DNA from: a virus
Lineage: Duplodnaviria; Heunggongvirae; Uroviricota; Caudoviricetes
IMG/VR virus record: IMGVR_UViG_2648501208_000002
Length of the DNA: 7,951 nucleotides
Strand: one strand, 5' to 3'
A program made the translations under genes and the position numbers. Below the pieces are notes generated by a model. It worked only from the letters and a program-made list of their open reading frames with translations. It did not search any database and was not told where the DNA came from. The first letter of the stretch is position 1, and every line of letters begins with the position of its first letter. This document shows positions 724 through 6,726 of this stretch, piece after piece.

Positions 724-750
724 GCTTCACCTCCGCAGAGGTCAAACGCT

Positions 751-841
751 GGATGCAAAAAATCGCAGGTGCATCTCTGCATCTGTGAAGGGAGAAGAGA
801 GTTTGGATTGTATGTGCGCATAAACGTCCCCGTTTAGCGCA
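751..841. repeat. Copy 1 of a 91-bp imperfect direct repeat (about 92% identical to 2684-2774); ends in a strong hairpin (815-841)
   Basis: Aligned by eye against 2684-2774: 7 mismatches over 91 nt, same orientation. The terminal hairpin is tgcgcataaacg / tccc loop / cgtttagcgca, an 11-bp stem with one bulge. It lies immediately upstream of the ninB start on the minus strand. Confidence 0.85.
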
Positions 842-917: not shown

Positions 918-1427
918 TTAGTCTGCCAAGTCTTCCTCAGTCGCAACTGGGTAATTCCAAATATCAAAAAAAGCTATAGCCTCCTGCCATTTGCTCCATA
1001 AGTTATCAAGTACTTGTGTAGGTTCCGTACTTTTAAAAACAGAATCAGCCGCATCACCGTTATGAACTTCCTCGTACAGTTCCATTATTAGCAGATTAAC
1101 AAAGTACTGTTTCAACATTAATGCCTGATTACCTTCTTTCTGCTGGCTATCCTGCTTGATGAGCTCCATCGCCCGTACTAGGCACCTGATGATATCCGCT
1201 GCATCATTAACGCTCCATTCAGATCCGCGCTTATCTTTAGCTGATGAATTAGCTCTCTCAGCGCAAGCCTTTAAAGACTCATAAAGGTAAACTCTATTTT
1301 GTAGCTGCAGCGCTTTTTTTGACGTGCACCAACTTGCAAGCGCCGACCCCGCTGCGGCTAATGTGCCAAACGCAGAAATGCCTGCTGCTATTGCACTTAA
1401 GTCGGCACTGTCAAAGTTCCACATCAT
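918..1427 (-). CDS. Hypothetical protein (169 aa) with a hydrophobic N-terminal segment; function unknown
   Basis: ORF with AAGGTG 5 nt upstream of the ATG at 1427. Residues about 9-33 (LSAIAAGISAFGTLAAAGSALASWC) are hydrophobic and could be a membrane anchor or signal; the rest is predicted helical with an acidic C-terminus. AT-rich codon usage unlike the lambda backbone. No family recognised. Confidence 0.55.
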   Translation of the reverse strand: MMWNFDSADLSAIAAGISAFGTLAAAGSALASWCTSKKALQLQNRVYLYESLKACAERANSSAKDKRGSEWSVNDAADIIRCLVRAMELIKQDSQQKEGNQALMLKQYFVNLLIMELYEEVHNGDAADSVFKSTEPTQVLDNLWSKWQEAIAFFDIWNYPVATEEDLAD

Positions 1428-1661
1428 CGTTACACCTTATATAAACACCCCTCAGTAATATCCAATAAGGTATGTGAACAATCAATATAATTTATATCCG
1501 TATCGGCACATAGCGATTTTAATGCTACTGATAATGGTATCTTTTAGATTATATCGTCCAGTTCCAGTACCCGTATTTTATGAAATGGACTCGCACATTA
1601 CCAAAAAAATGCCAGCACTTCCGTCATCGCAGAATGCTGGCAGTATTTCTAACTAGTGACT

Positions 1662-2270
1662 TTATTGCAACAGATTCTGACGGAAATATGGTAACACACG
1701 ACTCCACTTATCATCCTGCCACGGTTGGAATTTTACATGCGCCGTTTCTCTGGCAAGGATTTCTCGCGCCCTGTTGAGTATCCGAGGATATTCTTGTTCG
1801 ATTGAAGTGAATCTACCTGCTTCGCGATGCTCTGCGACCTGAAGAAGGGGCGTAACGTTCTGGCAGGCGGTTAACATCGTATCACTTGCTCGCCATAACC
1901 AGGCGAGTGTGCAAAGTTCGTTATCAGTGAATTGTTTTGTGATTGGGGATTGTTGAACTTCTCGATCGAGAATATCCAGAACCCAGCGGCGGAATTCTTT
2001 GGCCACAGGAGTACGAGCAAACATGGCGATCAAATGGGCTCCGCGAAGGCTAAATACTCGAGACTCCTGCATTCCACGAGGGGTGGTCACTTTGACCACC
2101 CTTGTCATCATATCTGTGAATTCATCTGAGTGCCGAGAGTAAATGCGCTGAACTGCTTTATCGTCCGCATATTCCAGTGCTAAACCAACTTCAGTGGCAG
2201 TAAGCCAAATTCTGTTATTGTGGCAAATCGGGGTAAACGTCGTTTTGTGGAATGCTAATTGAGTAGTCAT
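1662..2270 (-). CDS. BRO-N / phage antirepressor N-terminal-domain-like protein (202 aa)
   Basis: ORF with GAGGTGA 5 nt upstream of the ATG at 2270. The N-terminal region (RIWLTATEVGLALEY...SLRGAHLIAMFARTPVAKEFRRWVLDIL) fits the Bro-N/antirepressor pattern (..DVA..LGY... / ..AK.F..WV) from memory. The C-terminal half is unassigned. Confidence 0.55.
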   Translation of the reverse strand: MTTQLAFHKTTFTPICHNNRIWLTATEVGLALEYADDKAVQRIYSRHSDEFTDMMTRVVKVTTPRGMQESRVFSLRGAHLIAMFARTPVAKEFRRWVLDILDREVQQSPITKQFTDNELCTLAWLWRASDTMLTACQNVTPLLQVAEHREAGRFTSIEQEYPRILNRAREILARETAHVKFQPWQDDKWSRVLPYFRQNLLQ

Positions 2271-2426
2271 AGTATCACCTCATCAGGTTAACCATCACCA
2301 CCAACGACGCCAATCGACTGGTGGTGAACTGTGTAAGGTTGGCGTAACCGGCTACTCAAACCCGGCGCTTCCGAAGAAGCCCTCACACAGCCCACCATAA
2401 TTTGGGCATAGCCGTGCTTAGCGCAC

Positions 2427-2448
2427 AAAAAAACCGCTTAACGCGGTA
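2427..2448 (-). terminator. Putative intrinsic terminator on the minus strand
   Basis: Minus-strand RNA reads ACCGC-GUUAA-GCGGU followed by 7 U (plus-strand A-run at 2427-2433, stem-loop 2434-2447). The stem is short (5 bp) and only moderately GC-rich. Confidence 0.4.
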
Positions 2449-2533
2449 TGCGTTGAGTAGTATCCCGGGACGCCAATCCCGTGTGCCGATTTTGCGGCAA
2501 CGCACAGAATATAGCGCCGGATAAATCATGTCG

Positions 2534-2623
2534 TCAACCCCAGTAAATGGACACCATGATGATCACAGCCATAGCTGCTACAACAGTTACAACTACCTCA
2601 GGCCAAAACATAACGATTTCCAT
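2534..2623 (-). CDS. Possible 29-aa hydrophobic peptide (MEIVMFWPEVVVTVVAAMAVIIMVSIYWG)
   Basis: Not in the ORF track (too short). AAGGTGA lies directly upstream, but the spacing to the first ATG is only 2 nt; the internal Met at codon 5 would give a 25-aa product with more usual spacing. Almost entirely hydrophobic, single predicted transmembrane helix. The putative terminator at 2427-2448 follows about 85 nt downstream. Speculative. Confidence 0.3.
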   Translation of the reverse strand: MEIVMFWPEVVVTVVAAMAVIIMVSIYWG

Positions 2624-2683
2624 ATCACCTTTAGCCGCCAGACGAATAGAGACTCCCAATTCTGGCTGTCGAAGTAAAACACC

Positions 2684-2774
2684 GAATGTAAAAAATCGTA
2701 GGTGCATTTCTGCATCTGTGAATGGAGATGAGAGTTTGGATTGTGTGTGCGCATAAACGTCCCCGTTTAGCGCA
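2684..2774. repeat. Copy 2 of the 91-bp imperfect direct repeat; the same terminal hairpin at 2748-2774
   Basis: See copy 1. Copy 2 lies between the 500-aa gene promoter region and the small-peptide/BRO-N module. Confidence 0.85.
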
Positions 2775-3082: not shown

Positions 3083-4585
3083 ATGACTCAAACTCCTCTA
3101 TTACTTGCAATCATATTTTTATTGGTTGTTCTTGTTCTTTATATAGCTGCAATCAAACGCATCAAAAAAATACAATTAGAATTAAGTGATAGCAATCAAA
3201 AAAATGAAGAATACAAATCTCGCTTTGCAGATTATTTTAATGTAGAAGAAGAATGTAAGAAGCTTATTGAGAAAACAGAGCAAGAATGCTCCATAATAAA
3301 AGAAGAATCCCTAAAAGTAAAAGAAAATGCCAATAATGAACTAACAAACACCATTGAAAAAATGGATGGTATCAATAAACAAATCCAAGAGCTAAGAAGA
3401 ACTTATAAAGAGAAGAAAGAAATATATGATAAACTAGTAAGGCAAATTTCTATTTATTCAGAAGATGTTGAGCTAGCCGAACTAGGATTTTACGAACCTC
3501 ATTTTAATTTTGAAGATTCAGAGCAATTTAAAAACAAAATAAAATCCATCAGGGATGAACAGAAATTAATGCTGCGGGATAAAACCCACTCTGGCGCAGT
3601 ATATTGTACAACCCAATGGACTGTTGAAGGCTCTCGAGCAGAGGGTAAAAAAATGACAGACAGAAATATCAGGCTAACTACTAGAGCATTTAATAATGAA
3701 TGTGATGCTGCAATTAGCAATTGCACGTGGAAAAACATCACTAAAATGGAAGAACGCATCACAAAGGCATTTGAGGCCATAAATAAACTAAACGAGCAAA
3801 ATCACATATATATAAACACTAAATACCTCAATAAAAAACTTGAGGAATTGTGGCTTACCCATGAATATCGTGAGCAAAAACAGAAAGAAAAAGAAGAACA
3901 GGCAGAAATAAGGGCACAAATGAGAGAGGAGGAGCGTGCACAACGAGAAATAGAAAAGGCCATGCAAGACGCAGAGGCAGAAGAGCGCCGTTATAAAAAA
4001 GCAATTGAAGCTGCAAGAAAGGAAATGGAAAAAGTTACTGGTGACATGAAGCAGCGCCTCGAAAATCGCATTGCCGAACTAGAACAGAGTTTGTCGCAGG
4101 CTGAATCAAAGCATCAAAGAGCATTATCCATGGCACAACAAACCAAACAAGGTCATGTTTATATTATTTCGAACATAGGTTCTTTTGGGGAGAATGTTTA
4201 TAAAATAGGCATAACACGACGTCTTGATCCGCAAGACCGTGTAAATGAGCTCGGTGATGCATCTGTTCCTTTTATTTTTGATGTACATGCCATGATTTAT
4301 TCGGAGGACGCTCCATCATTAGAAAAAAAACTACATGATGTCTTCGATAAAAAGAGAGTCAATCTTGTAAATCGTAGAAAAGAGTTTTTCTATGTTACTC
4401 TGGATGAGATCAAAGAAGCTGTTAAAAAACACTCTGATTCAGAAATTGAATTTATTGAGACAGCAGTCGCAAAAGACTTTAATGAGTCATTGGCTATTCG
4501 TAATCATGAAAATAAAAAAAGTGACAACAGCAACTCATCAATTATACCTGAGCGAAAAACCCCAGAGTTTGCAGATGCAATTTAA
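3083..4585 (+). CDS. Membrane-anchored coiled-coil protein with C-terminal GIY-YIG-like (T5orf172/MUG113-type) domain, 500 aa; candidate anti-phage or exclusion protein
   Basis: Longest ORF in the window, on the strand opposite the phage early operon, with AAGGA 9 nt upstream of the ATG. N-terminal hydrophobic helix (LLLAIIFLLVVLVLYIAAI). Residues about 250-340 are K/E/R/Q-rich heptad-like coiled-coil. C-terminal GHVYIISNIGSFGENVYKIGITRRLDPQDRVNELGD...EKKLHDVF...RKEFFYV matches the T5orf172/GIY-YIG-like signature from memory. The middle region (GFYEPHFNFEDS...CTTQWTVEGS) resembles the DUF4041 region that often accompanies T5orf172. Very AT-rich codon usage, by eye roughly 30-35% G+C. Confidence 0.85.
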   Translation: MTQTPLLLAIIFLLVVLVLYIAAIKRIKKIQLELSDSNQKNEEYKSRFADYFNVEEECKKLIEKTEQECSIIKEESLKVKENANNELTNTIEKMDGINKQIQELRRTYKEKKEIYDKLVRQISIYSEDVELAELGFYEPHFNFEDSEQFKNKIKSIRDEQKLMLRDKTHSGAVYCTTQWTVEGSRAEGKKMTDRNIRLTTRAFNNECDAAISNCTWKNITKMEERITKAFEAINKLNEQNHIYINTKYLNKKLEELWLTHEYREQKQKEKEEQAEIRAQMREEERAQREIEKAMQDAEAEERRYKKAIEAARKEMEKVTGDMKQRLENRIAELEQSLSQAESKHQRALSMAQQTKQGHVYIISNIGSFGENVYKIGITRRLDPQDRVNELGDASVPFIFDVHAMIYSEDAPSLEKKLHDVFDKKRVNLVNRRKEFFYVTLDEIKEAVKKHSDSEIEFIETAVAKDFNESLAIRNHENKKSDNSNSSIIPERKTPEFADAI

Positions 4586-5834: not shown

Positions 5835-6726
5835 AAATCCACCCCGTAAATCCAGTCAGTGTTAAAGCCTGTTGCTTGTTACGGTTGATTTCGAGTTGGG
5901 TCCACTTGTCGCGGAGTTTGGCCGGACTTAGCACGTTACCGGACCAGAAGTTGTCCTGGCATGCCCAGCGGAACAGCACGCACATGTCGCGGTGGTTACG
6001 GCCGTCACGTTCACGCATCAGGCGGATATCGTTAGCCCACCCTGCAAAATTCGGTTTTCTGGCTGATGGCGCGATGGTCTTCACCATGTCAAACATCCAC
6101 TCTGCGGCGGTCAGGTCTTCTGCTGTCCCCCACCTGCTGCCGCTCTGAATTGCAGCATCTGGTTTCTCCACAGGAAGATCGTTTTCTGGTTGGTCAGAGG
6201 ATTCGCCAGAATTCTCGGACGAAAAAGGTTTTATATTGTCTTTTGTTAGTTTGTCTTTTGTGTTTACCTGATTCGGGTAAGTGCCTTTACCTGATTTGGG
6301 TAAACTTTTCTTACCTGATTCAGGTAAATTTACCTCTTTCAGGTAAACTTTATTTTTCTTACCTGATTCGGGTAATGTTGACCATTCACTGACCACATTA
6401 TTAATGCCGATATTCCGCCCGCTCTGAATAAAAATCCCACGCTTTACCAGAACACTTTTTGCAGCAGAACACTTGTGCGGCAATATCCCGGTCAACTCGG
6501 AAAGTTGCTCGTTGCTCACCCAATCCAGTTTTTTATTAAAGCCATATGTTTTGCGCATGACAGCCAGGAAGACCAGAAGCTGGTGCTGTGTTAATCCGGC
6601 CAGCATCACAGCTTCCAGCAACTCATTTGCAATGCGCGTATAACCATCATCGAGATCTGCCACGCGCGGCTCCTTTTGTGCCGCATCCGGCACTGGAAAA
6701 TTGAATATCTCAGCAGTGTTTGCCAT
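5806..6726 (-). CDS. O: Replication initiator protein O (lambda-type C-terminal domain; N-terminal iteron-binding domain diverged)
   Basis: The central and C-terminal region (YSSENSGESSDQPENDL...TAEDLTAAEWMFDMVKTIAPSARKPNFAGWANDIRLMRERDGRNHRDMCVLFRWACQDNFWSGNVLSPAKLRDKWTQLEINRNKQQA) is lambda O. I place the start at the internal ATG at 6726 (MANTAEIFNF..., GGGAGG 4 nt upstream), which corresponds to the lambda O N-terminus; the ORF track extends 30 codons further, to 6816. The 3' end overlaps P by 29 nt in an unusual way (see findings). Confidence 0.9.
   Translation of the reverse strand: MANTAEIFNFPVPDAAQKEPRVADLDDGYTRIANELLEAVMLAGLTQHQLLVFLAVMRKTYGFNKKLDWVSNEQLSELTGILPHKCSAAKSVLVKRGIFIQSGRNIGINNVVSEWSTLPESGKKNKVYLKEVNLPESGKKSLPKSGKGTYPNQVNTKDKLTKDNIKPFSSENSGESSDQPENDLPVEKPDAAIQSGSRWGTAEDLTAAEWMFDMVKTIAPSARKPNFAGWANDIRLMRERDGRNHRDMCVLFRWACQDNFWSGNVLSPAKLRDKWTQLEINRNKQQALTLTGFTGWIYEKHRRTDG
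6265..6375. repeat. Replication origin iterons (five 16-bp repeats, consensus TACCTGATTCGGGTAA) inside O
   Basis: Repeats at 6265-6280, 6288-6303, 6312-6327, 6331-6346 (degenerate) and 6360-6375, each with palindromic ends (TACC...GGTA). An AT-rich tract at about 6225-6264 lies on the side expected from lambda ori organisation, given that O is transcribed on the minus strand. Confidence 0.8.

Follow-up and report, generated by a model that had tools for sequence, protein, structure and literature searches.

Between two direct repeats in the early operon of a lambdoid E. coli prophage lie two neighbouring genes, one for an antirepressor-like protein and the other for a 169-aa protein. Do they travel and act as one exchangeable functional unit, as a sequence-only reading of the locus had proposed, or are they separate pieces of cargo that have come to adjoin? 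We addressed this in the window, by which we mean the whole 7,951-nt stretch of DNA that was analysed (IMG/VR record IMGVR_UViG_2648501208_000002), and in related loci and genomes. It is likely, in our judgement, that the interval consists of two independent cassettes, an immI-type antirepressor module and a moron carrying the 169-aa gene, which adjoin in one E. coli lambdoid prophage lineage and do not make up a functional unit. The finding as a whole is an ordinary one, and the c4-ant module is of an already known type (P1 immI / Gifsy-1).

Two co-directional genes in a prophage early operon

The window belongs to a lambdoid prophage of E. coli, with 99.9-100% identity to PhiR26_1, and its minus strand carries the prophage's early rightward operon. 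Both open reading frames hold up where they were first read (2270-1662, 202 aa, and 1427-918, 169 aa), and both run on that strand in the direction of cro/YdaS, YdaT, O, P, the Ren-like gene and NinB, as had been claimed (Table 1). The Shine-Dalgarno sequences ascribed to them are also there on reading the sequence, GAGGTGA 4 nt 5' of the ATG for ant and AAGGTG 5 nt 5' of the ATG for the 169-aa gene. The adjoining plus-strand gene is PD-Lambda-1 (PADLOC-DB 2.0, E 1.5e-197). The expectation that the two genes would be expressed with the early operon stands as far as orientation goes. As simple co-expression it is incomplete: a promoter of its own and an RNA switch are predicted for Ant, and the 169-aa gene comes after a terminator-like hairpin and a conserved promoter-like motif. 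Overlooked between the repeats in the earlier reading were three Rfam RNA matches, the promoter-like site at 2537-2508 and the intergenic terminator-like hairpin with its seven U.

Table 1. Features of the interval between and including the two repeats; positions are those of the 7,951-nt window.
Feature	Coordinates	Strand	Remarks
Downstream repeat copy	738..841	-	104-nt direct repeat
orf33/ylcH-like frame in downstream repeat	821-720	-	stop overlaps ninB GTG
Terminator-like hairpin in downstream repeat	781-764, then T-run	-	position of lambda tR2
169-aa orphan protein gene, PHROG 1779	918..1427	-	N-terminal hydrophobic helix, all-alpha C-terminal domain
Promoter-like motif TTGATT, 17 nt, GATATT	1457..1485	-	conserved upstream of 169-aa homologues
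Terminator-like hairpin, then seven U	1600..1643	-	directly 3' of ant stop codon
Antirepressor gene ant, 202 aa	1662..2270	-	Bro-N residues 17-100 and P22AR_C residues 110-180
Putative upstream ORF overlapping C4	2288..2428	-	46 codons from TTG, or 36 from ATG at 2398
b2 site GATTGGCGTC	2315-2306	-	in upstream ORF overlapping C4
C4-type antisense RNA	2317..2402	-	RF01695, full-length model match
IsrK-like leader RNA with a1/b1 target hairpins	2427..2514	-	Rfam
IsrK intrinsic terminator	stem 2447-2433, then seven U	-	
b1 site GATTGGCGTC	2478-2469	-	in IsrK-like leader
Sigma-70-like promoter TTGACG, 18 nt, TATATT	2508..2537	-	10/12 consensus matches; predicted
57-aa ORF, phrog_4612	2534..2707	-	doubtful gene
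Internal 29-aa hydrophobic ORF	2622-2534	-	inside 57-aa ORF 2534..2707
Transcription-proximal (upstream) repeat copy	2671..2774	-	104-nt direct repeat
Hairpin GCGCTAAACGGGGACGTTTATGCGC and 5' part of ylcH/orf33-like frame	inside repeat 2671..2774	-	

A cargo region bracketed by repeats

The flanking repeats had been described as 91 bp long. They exist, at 738-841 and 2671-2774, and are 104 nt in length and 89% identical. About 2,900 E. coli genomes have the repeat sequence as a single copy 5' of ybcN/orf151, and so does phage 82, whose annotation labels the repeat hairpin a 'possible regulator-binding site'. The downstream copy brings a terminator-like hairpin to the position that tR2 holds in lambda, directly 5' of ninB. 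Between the copies, the block from 907 to about 1660 is exchanged for other cargo in three related loci (L002, L003 and L011), with discrete boundaries. The interval is thus a cargo hotspot bracketed by two 104-nt repeats, and the part of the original proposal that saw the inter-repeat space as an exchangeable cargo region stands; the part that saw the pair of genes as one functional unit does not.

The 57-aa ORF is retained in L002 with an in-frame 6-nt indel and has a stop codon in L003. A type I toxin-like reading of the small hydrophobic ORF within it (2622-2534) was dropped on account of that stop codon, which is also why we leave this ORF as doubtful.

An antirepressor gene behind a C4/IsrK RNA module

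The assignment of a BRO-N domain to the 202-aa protein passes an HMM search: Pfam PF02498 scores 40.5 bits (cut-off 25.6, E 4.4e-10), and a stronger match is to P22AR_C, PF10548 (63.7 bits, cut-off 22.4, E 1.7e-17). The protein also matches phrog_245, 'anti-repressor Ant', at E 2.8e-56. By its domain content, then, the product of gene 2270-1662 is an Ant-type antirepressor.

Upstream of ant, the C4 model RF01695 matches at 2402-2317 with 74.8 bits (gathering score 45) and the isrK model RF01394 at 2499-2427 with 58.7 bits (gathering score 50), while the c4-a1b1 model RF03163 reaches 39.6 bits at 2514-2462, below its gathering score of 46.7. The C4 and isrK matches have the order and strand expected of such a module, with a promoter match directly 5'. 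This predicted promoter, 2537-2508, stops 9 nt short of where the isrK model match begins, sits where PisrK / P1 P51 would be, and is identical in L002 and L003. No LexA box was seen by eye at the Ant promoter. When L002 and L003 are compared with the window, there is hardly any variation in the promoter, a1b1, C4 and b2, and the flanks diverge. The decamer GATTGGCGTC is present twice, once on either side of C4, against 0 expected by chance, and the C4 segment ACGCCAA (2345-2339), predicted to be unpaired, is complementary to both of these b sites. Near C4 only this b-type complementarity was convincing, and a convincing a2 site was not found. Duplexfold energies for the whole of C4 against its flanks were no better than those of shuffled controls, and the b sites are therefore argued for solely from the 10-mer, which is repeated exactly, and from its complement. 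The upstream ORF that overlaps C4 (2428/2398-2288) ends 17 nt ahead of the ant ATG, and by position it would be an analogue of Gifsy-1 orf45 and P1 icd.

What the analysis shows is the RNA elements, the promoter-like site, the protein domains and a conserved synteny; the pairing outcome, the translational coupling and the repressor target in the following scheme are inferred by analogy with P1 and Gifsy-1. The module's own promoter would drive an IsrK-like leader with a1/b1 hairpins and a leaky terminator, and read-through past that terminator would enter C4 and the overlapping short ORF, and then ant. Pairing of the C4 segment with the repeated GAUUGGCGUC sites would hold the long transcript translationally silent, until free IsrK or an altered RNA balance opens the upstream ORF and translational coupling yields Ant. 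Ant could then inactivate a CI-type repressor of its own or a co-resident prophage, leading to induction.

Comparison with known immunity modules

In Gifsy-1 of Salmonella, the isrK-orf45-anrP RNA switch was shown to trigger prophage induction (Hershko-Shalev et al. 2016, PMC4825925). The locus described here resembles it in having an IsrK RNA (RF01394, above the gathering score), a promoter of its own (here a predicted one), a leaky terminator, and a short upstream ORF followed by an antirepressor-like gene, and both loci lie inside a lambdoid prophage upstream of the Q antiterminator region. They differ in that the host here is E. coli, that the module has its place between ren and ninB, with the 104-nt repeat on either side, and that no isrJ follows ant; IsrJ matches occur only in other loci, 3' of their Q genes.

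The immI operon of P1/P7 was reportedly described by Citron and Schuster in 1990 as consisting of the c4 antisense RNA, icd and ant. Common to P1/P7 and the window are the C4 RNA (RF01695, 74.8 bits) with ant downstream of it, and an upstream b1-type and a downstream b2-type site complementary to the single-stranded stretch of C4. P1 Ant is a protein of other architecture, however, P1 icd is a separate gene whereas the upstream ORF here overlaps C4, and a clear a2 site was not found in the window. With P22 immI (mnt, arc, sar, ant) the locus shares the P22AR_C domain, but the predicted control is by C4/IsrK RNA, and neither an Arc nor a Mnt repressor is present.

By analogy, then, the ant locus is the E. 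coli counterpart of Gifsy-1 isrK-orf45-anrP and P1 immI c4-ant, so Ant's conserved partner would be the RNA switch and not the 169-aa protein. Homologues of Ant are found in c4-ant or mnt/arc/sar/ant immunity modules. In Aggregatibacter phage Aaphi23, C4 likewise lies 5' of an Ant homologue (42% identity), and in SPN3UB and Klebsiella phages the homologues (40-58% identity) sit in P22-type mnt/arc/(sar)/ant modules, with a sar RNA detected in SPN3UB. In RefSeq and GenBank, ant of these E. coli prophages goes under the name 'Rha protein' or 'P22AR C-terminal domain-containing protein'. The analogy suggests a correction to this annotation, in that a C4/IsrK RNA switch probably has this gene as its output. 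Should the switch operate as in Gifsy-1, these prophages would have an induction route independent of RecA-mediated repressor cleavage.

Two cassettes that adjoin in one lineage

BLAST breakpoints fall at about 906, at 1660-1680 and inside ant at about 2045, and the 169-aa and c4-ant cassettes are therefore swapped separately. Each is also found without an intact copy of the other: L002 and L003 retain c4-ant with different downstream cargo, such as a HEPN gene, and DLP12-like prophages keep the 169-aa gene intact beside an Ant remnant or pseudogene. Among 5,426 complete E. coli genomes, c4-ant is at least 80% covered in 135 and matched at least in part in 839, many of the partial matches being the 3' (P22AR_C) part of ant only and some being Ant remnants. 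The 169-aa cassette is present in 181 of the same 5,426, and the whole block in 112.

The alternative is that the genes form a two-gene system for anti-repression, infection sensing or abortive infection, exchanged together between the repeats, in which, for example, sensing or binding DNA falls to the Bro-N protein, with the membrane protein as effector. We regard this as quite improbable. The two genes are adjacent and co-directional, the 112 genomes with the full block speak for it, all IMG/VR loci at 95% identity or above have the order antC, intergenic region, 169-aa gene, and the 169-aa cassette is physically linked to a P22AR_C-coding 3' end in all the E. coli genomes examined, so that a lineage-specific functional link between Ant and the 169-aa protein may exist. 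But the adjacency is confined to E. coli prophages at 95% identity or above, and in about a dozen distinct contexts neither Ant nor C4 was found near 169-aa homologues at or below 83% identity; co-occurrence of the two families, on which the sequence-only reading had staked its proposal, thus ends with near-identical E. coli prophages. The breakpoints that part the genes, the other cargo found downstream of c4-ant and the intact 169-aa genes beside truncated or pseudogenised Ant weigh against a single unit as well, as do the terminator-like hairpin and conserved promoter-like motif between the genes and the fact that Ant homologues have conserved partners of their own in C4, or in Arc/Mnt.

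The 169-aa protein family and its predicted topology

That the 169-aa protein has no recognised family agrees with our searches: nothing matched in Pfam, NCBIfam or PADLOC (PADLOC-DB 2.0: 0 families with E up to 0.01), nor in the structure libraries searched. When 30 family members were scanned against Pfam, the outcome was scattered single-member noise only, and a profile search of PDB sequences returned nothing. Its sole match is PHROG 1779, a small family whose members, in a set of 1.84 billion proteins, fall into 34 clusters at 50% identity. Could the frame be open by chance alone, in a spacer between genes, with no real gene behind it? It has no annotated function, and the O104:H4 locus tag seems to have been added to the annotation at a late stage. 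Against this, in-frame conservation over the full length, a check that the earlier reading had called for, extends down to 47% identity, and a profile search extends the family to 18-29% identity with invariant residues. This pattern effectively refutes the chance-frame explanation, which we find hardly credible given also the good Shine-Dalgarno sequence and the confident helical core of the structure model.

The hydrophobic N-terminus noted at the outset recurs as a helix in 30/30 aligned members, and an acidic N-flank and basic C-flank of that helix fit in most of these 30. In the window's protein the helix contains much Ala, Gly and Ser and is only moderately hydrophobic (Kyte-Doolittle 1.59). 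An AlphaFold2 model is all-alpha (pLDDT 70.7, pTM 0.63), with a confident helical core and an N-terminal helix of low confidence. We predict an inner-membrane anchor formed by this one N-terminal helix, N-out/C-in, with a cytoplasmic helical domain. That domain has no enzyme-like invariant residues, and the family has a conserved acidic C-terminal tail, T/S-D-E-D-L-x-D; the protein may be an accessory protein that works through partner binding.

A probable self-contained cassette

The hairpin at 1600..1643 (-22.3 kcal/mol, z-score -2.5) belongs with the 169-aa cassette, for it lies inside 907-1660, a block exchanged in one piece. Downstream of it, the hexamers of the promoter-like motif are kept 5' of 169-aa homologues that share only 50-83% protein identity. 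The TTG and GATATTA columns are invariant and the spacer is variable, and the Shine-Dalgarno columns are conserved too. The motif scores 8/12, and our consensus scan, with its threshold of 9/12, did not report it. A structured 5' UTR element was considered for the conserved region upstream of the gene and rejected in favour of the promoter reading, as the RNAalifold prediction was a weak hairpin of 7 pairs with next to no covariation.

The closer homologues of the 169-aa protein lie just 5' of ninB and have this promoter-like motif in common, and the motif and the location together fit a self-contained moron. Such a moron would comprise the terminator-like hairpin, the promoter-like motif, the Shine-Dalgarno sequence and the 169-aa gene, and would end at the tR2-position hairpin before ninB; the 169-aa protein is probably made from the prophage.

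The moron concept is said to come from Juhala et al. in 2000. Compared with lambdoid morons and exclusion genes near nin (lambda ren, sieB, rexB), the 169-aa gene is likewise a discrete swap-in cassette between conserved genes, is surrounded by terminator-like and promoter-like elements, encodes a predicted membrane anchor, and occupies a slot common to ren-like, PD-Lambda-1 and HEPN cargo. It differs from SieB and RexB in having no sequence or profile similarity to them (hhalign probability <1%), and both were rejected as relatives (0.04% for SieB, 0.2% for RexB).

What the 169-aa protein might do

Superinfection exclusion or defence is our guess at the most likely role, a tentative one drawn from location and topology alone: the slot adjoins PD-Lambda-1, and elsewhere the same slot holds a HEPN gene. 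A fuller version, which we think possible though somewhat doubtful, is that the 169-aa protein (PHROG 1779) is the founder of a family of single-gene, membrane-anchored prophage proteins. Made from a conserved promoter of its own at the ren-ninB cargo hotspot, it would guard the lysogen through superinfection exclusion or abortive infection, with the cytoplasmic helical domain and the conserved acidic tail binding a phage or host partner.

It is also conceivable, if on the unlikely side, that the protein is an early lytic accessory factor with a host or membrane target during infection, N-antiterminated early transcripts being its sole source; the gene would then be no lysogen-expressed moron or defence gene. 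The gene follows the direction of the early operon in every context, its predicted promoter is weak, and the protein has no PADLOC match, all of which would suit such a factor. In distant relatives its place is between N and int in the leftward early operon. Twice it lies directly 3' of a DNA_pol3_theta-like gene, which it overlaps by 4 nt in one case; this leftward placement fits an early lytic as well as a lysogenic function. The -35/-10 columns, however, are conserved among nin-proximal homologues whose proteins are no more than 50-65% identical, and in the E. coli cassette a terminator-like hairpin lies 5' of the gene. Moreover, the gene is intact in decayed DLP12-like prophages that are incapable of lytic growth, which argues for a benefit to the lysogen.

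With regard to the lysogen-expressed moron, the 169-aa protein represents a well-defined orphan family that we predict to be a membrane-anchored, lysogen-expressed accessory or defence factor. Nothing remarkable is evidenced for it so far, and the gene merits a place in a defence-gene screen. A scan of genome contigs for related loci with alignment A1 returned a single locus.

Linkage of ant and the 169-aa gene

Two minus-strand genes, ant (2270-1662) and a 169-aa gene (1427-918), lie between two repeats, and the sequence-only reading suggested that they may be one exchangeable functional unit. Both ORFs are present, each with a readable Shine-Dalgarno sequence, but the unit itself does not hold. 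Pairwise BLAST gives three breakpoints: ~906, which is 12 nt beyond the 169-aa stop codon; 1660-1680, where ant has its stop codon; and ~2045, within ant and separating its two domains. Phage IdasGreatGrand (L002) and O157/STEC prophages (L003, L011) keep c4-ant, the segment with the C4 antisense RNA and ant, while block 907-1660 is replaced by other cargo that includes a HEPN-domain gene, with a weak match to the candidate defence model PDC-M28A. In PhiR5_1 (L001) the 169-aa cassette sits behind a different Bro-N variant, and C4 was not found in this locus. DLP12-like prophages (including those of O104:H4 and B7A) have an intact 169-aa gene (96-99% identity) preceded by a P22AR_C remnant that is either truncated or a pseudogene. 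In a set of 5,426 complete E. coli genomes, the 169-aa cassette is present in 181, at least 80% of c4-ant in 135, and the whole block in 112. Nor did co-occurrence bear out the unit, as no Ant or C4 was found near any 169-aa homologue of 83% identity or less, across about a dozen contexts from Logan, ENA, JGI and IMG/VR. Breakpoints, swapped cargo, genome counts and divergent contexts together argue that the two genes are adjacent because they are linked by descent in a single lineage.

The notion of exchange fares better for the slot between the repeats. The repeats exist, at 104 nt and not the 91 bp first given. A single copy of the 104-nt sequence lies upstream of ybcN in ~2,900 E. coli genomes and in phage 82, where a hairpin annotated 'possible regulator-binding site' falls within it, as does the start of orf33/ylcH; the stop codon of this frame overlaps the start of ninB. 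The repeat is the ylcH/orf33 leader of ninB. Duplicated copies bracket c4-ant and the 169-aa gene in the window, and an esterase (BD-FAE/alpha-beta hydrolase) in phage 4A7 and relatives (Lambda_4C10). Because the bracketed cargo differs, the duplicated repeat marks a recombination-prone cargo slot, and it seems to serve as a linker at which recombination exchanges the cargo.

Features of the window and of related loci
Feature	Position	Strand	Basis or remark
104-nt repeat copies	738-841 and 2671-2774		89% identical
Sigma-70-like promoter (predicted)	2537-2508	-	TTGACG, 18 nt, TATATT; 10/12 consensus
c4-a1b1	2514-2462	-	Rfam
isrK	2499-2427	-	Rfam, 58.7 bits (gathering score 50)
GATTGGCGTC copy in leader	2478-2469	-	exact match
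IsrK terminator (predicted)	2447-2433, then seven U	-	stem and U-run
C4 antisense RNA	2402-2317	-	Rfam, 74.8 bits (gathering score 45)
Short ORF overlapping C4	2428 or 2398 to 2288	-	ends 17 nt ahead of ant
GATTGGCGTC copy just 3' of C4	2315-2306	-	36 nt ahead of ant ATG
Promoter-like motif of 169-aa gene	1485-1457	-	conserved columns among homologues
Terminator-like hairpin after 169-aa gene	781-764	-	inside 104-nt repeat
Region of homologue adjoining DNA_pol3_theta	5762-6540 in L066/L067		Pantoea ananatis and related assembly
Region of homologue adjoining DNA_pol3_theta	5804-6519 in L071-L073

A predicted antirepressor module with RNA elements

The Bro-N assignment survived an HMM check of the 202-aa ant product (Pfam, E 4.4e-10, above cut-off); P22AR_C matches more strongly (E 1.7e-17), and PHROG families annotated as anti-repressor Ant also match. 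Because these domains agree with the immunity-module neighbours of its homologues, the protein is predicted to be an antirepressor by domain content and conserved context. The gene is a mosaic with a joint at ~2045. Its P22AR_C-coding 3' part (1662-2045) moves together with the 169-aa cassette and occurs fused to three or more different 5' parts: the window Bro-N, the PhiR5_1 Bro-N (49% identical, with an N-terminal extension) and a truncation in DLP12-like prophages.

The predicted RNA control of ant is overlooked by current annotation, and the sequence-only reading did not notice it either. Three Rfam elements precede ant on its strand, in the order c4-a1b1 (a match below its gathering score), isrK and C4 antisense RNA, and the predicted promoter ends 9 nt ahead of the isrK match. 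The window has exactly two copies of the 10-mer GATTGGCGTC, against a chance expectation of none, and the 10-mer is complementary to ACGCCAA of C4 (2345-2339), a stretch predicted to be unpaired. The promoter, a1b1 (leader hairpins), C4 and b2 (a target site complementary to C4) are almost invariant between the window, L002 and L003, and the flanks diverge. The P1 immI c4-icd-ant operon has the same architecture. In Gifsy-1 isrK-orf45-anrP, whose architecture the window also shows, translation of the read-through transcripts is silenced until the short IsrK acts in trans; translation of orf45 then starts, and coupling yields the antirepressor AnrP, leading to prophage induction (PMC4825925). 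The ant module would thus belong to a known kind of module that experiments have characterised.

C4 and isrK also stand ahead of Ant homologues in two further E. coli prophage types (L002, L003), and in Aggregatibacter phage Aaphi23 C4 (58 bits) precedes a homologue of 42% identity. Homologues of 40-58% identity are held by P22-type mnt/arc/ant modules in Salmonella phage SPN3UB, where sar RNA was detected, and in two Klebsiella phages. In these contexts, the conserved companions of Ant are immunity-I regulators, not the 169-aa protein. Directly upstream of the C4 match and Ant homologue in Aaphi23 (L065) lies the Rfam element AaHKsRNA82 (1759-1944), probably an a1b1/IsrK-equivalent leader under a separate sRNA name.

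The 169-aa gene and its product

Homologues with 50-83% identity sit in the slot that the gene has in the window, as the last gene ahead of NinB (or a DUF1367 analogue), in early-operon direction and usually downstream of a DUF551-type gene. About 75 nt upstream of them are conserved in a promoter-like pattern, with invariant TTG (-35) and GATATTA (-10) 17 nt apart, variable spacers and a Shine-Dalgarno sequence after. In the E. coli cassette a hairpin with seven U precedes this motif (-22.3 kcal/mol, z-score -2.5), and the hairpin after the gene occupies the position of lambda tR2, directly upstream of ninB. These predicted elements would form the layout typical of morons. More distant members (18-29% identity) are located between N and int, in the leftward early region. 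Given such varied contexts, this is a family of accessory genes of lambdoid early regions, and it has no fixed partner. Immediately upstream of the distant homologues, in two prophage backgrounds, is a DNA_pol3_theta (HolE/Hot-like) gene, overlapping by 4 nt in one of them; this adjacency may be a replication link or mere synteny.

As first read, the protein has no recognised family: PHROG 1779 (unknown function) is the sole match among the libraries searched, with none in Pfam, NCBIfam or PADLOC. Its family is small (14 clusters at 90% identity among 5.8 billion proteins; 34 representatives at 50% among 1.84 billion; 2 of 50,697 phage records), and the protein is a true orphan. The reading frame is conserved, some residues are invariant, the acidic C-terminal tail is conserved too, and the hydrophobic N-terminus recurs as a single segment in 30/30 aligned members. 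Since its flanks, acidic on the N side and basic on the C side in most members, fit the positive-inside rule, the segment is predicted to be a membrane anchor in N-out, C-in orientation, followed by a cytoplasmic domain. The AlphaFold2 model is all-alpha (pLDDT 70.7, pTM 0.63; N-terminus low confidence). The nearly invariant polar and aromatic positions in a wide alignment (S32, Q43, N60, W71, W147) do not look catalytic, which makes a binding role more likely than an enzymatic one. The gene most likely encodes an independently transcribed, membrane-anchored accessory protein. Location, and not homology, makes a superinfection-exclusion or defence role plausible.

Other features

The cargo region that holds ant and the 169-aa gene also contains a known defence gene, PD-Lambda-1, with a ren-like gene on one side and the upstream copy of the repeat on the other. 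Its 500-aa DUF4041 and T5orf172/MUG113 product (3083-4585, plus strand) matches the PADLOC models at E 1.5e-197, and the gene runs opposite to the early operon and is low in GC (~28-39% over most of its length). A 29-codon ORF (2622-2534, minus strand), very hydrophobic (MEIVMFWPEVVVTVVAAMAVIIMVSIYWG), lies within a 57-aa ORF (2534-2707); it comes with a Shine-Dalgarno-like AAGGTGA, and the -35 of the predicted IsrK promoter overlaps its stop codon. It is kept in L002 with an in-frame 6-nt indel and interrupted by TAG in L003, and may encode a small membrane peptide, or nothing. Five 22-nt iterons (TTACCTGATTCGGGTAA type; 6259-6375) inside the O gene are the lambdoid replication origin.

Three prophages with divergent 169-aa homologues carry Rfam isrJ matches (L004, 8567-8643; L005, 7784-7854; L057, 8371-8443), and Rfam found neither isrK nor C4 in them. 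Whereas isrJ follows anrP in Gifsy-1, here it comes just after the Q antiterminator genes and is apparently where the Q-dependent late transcript begins.
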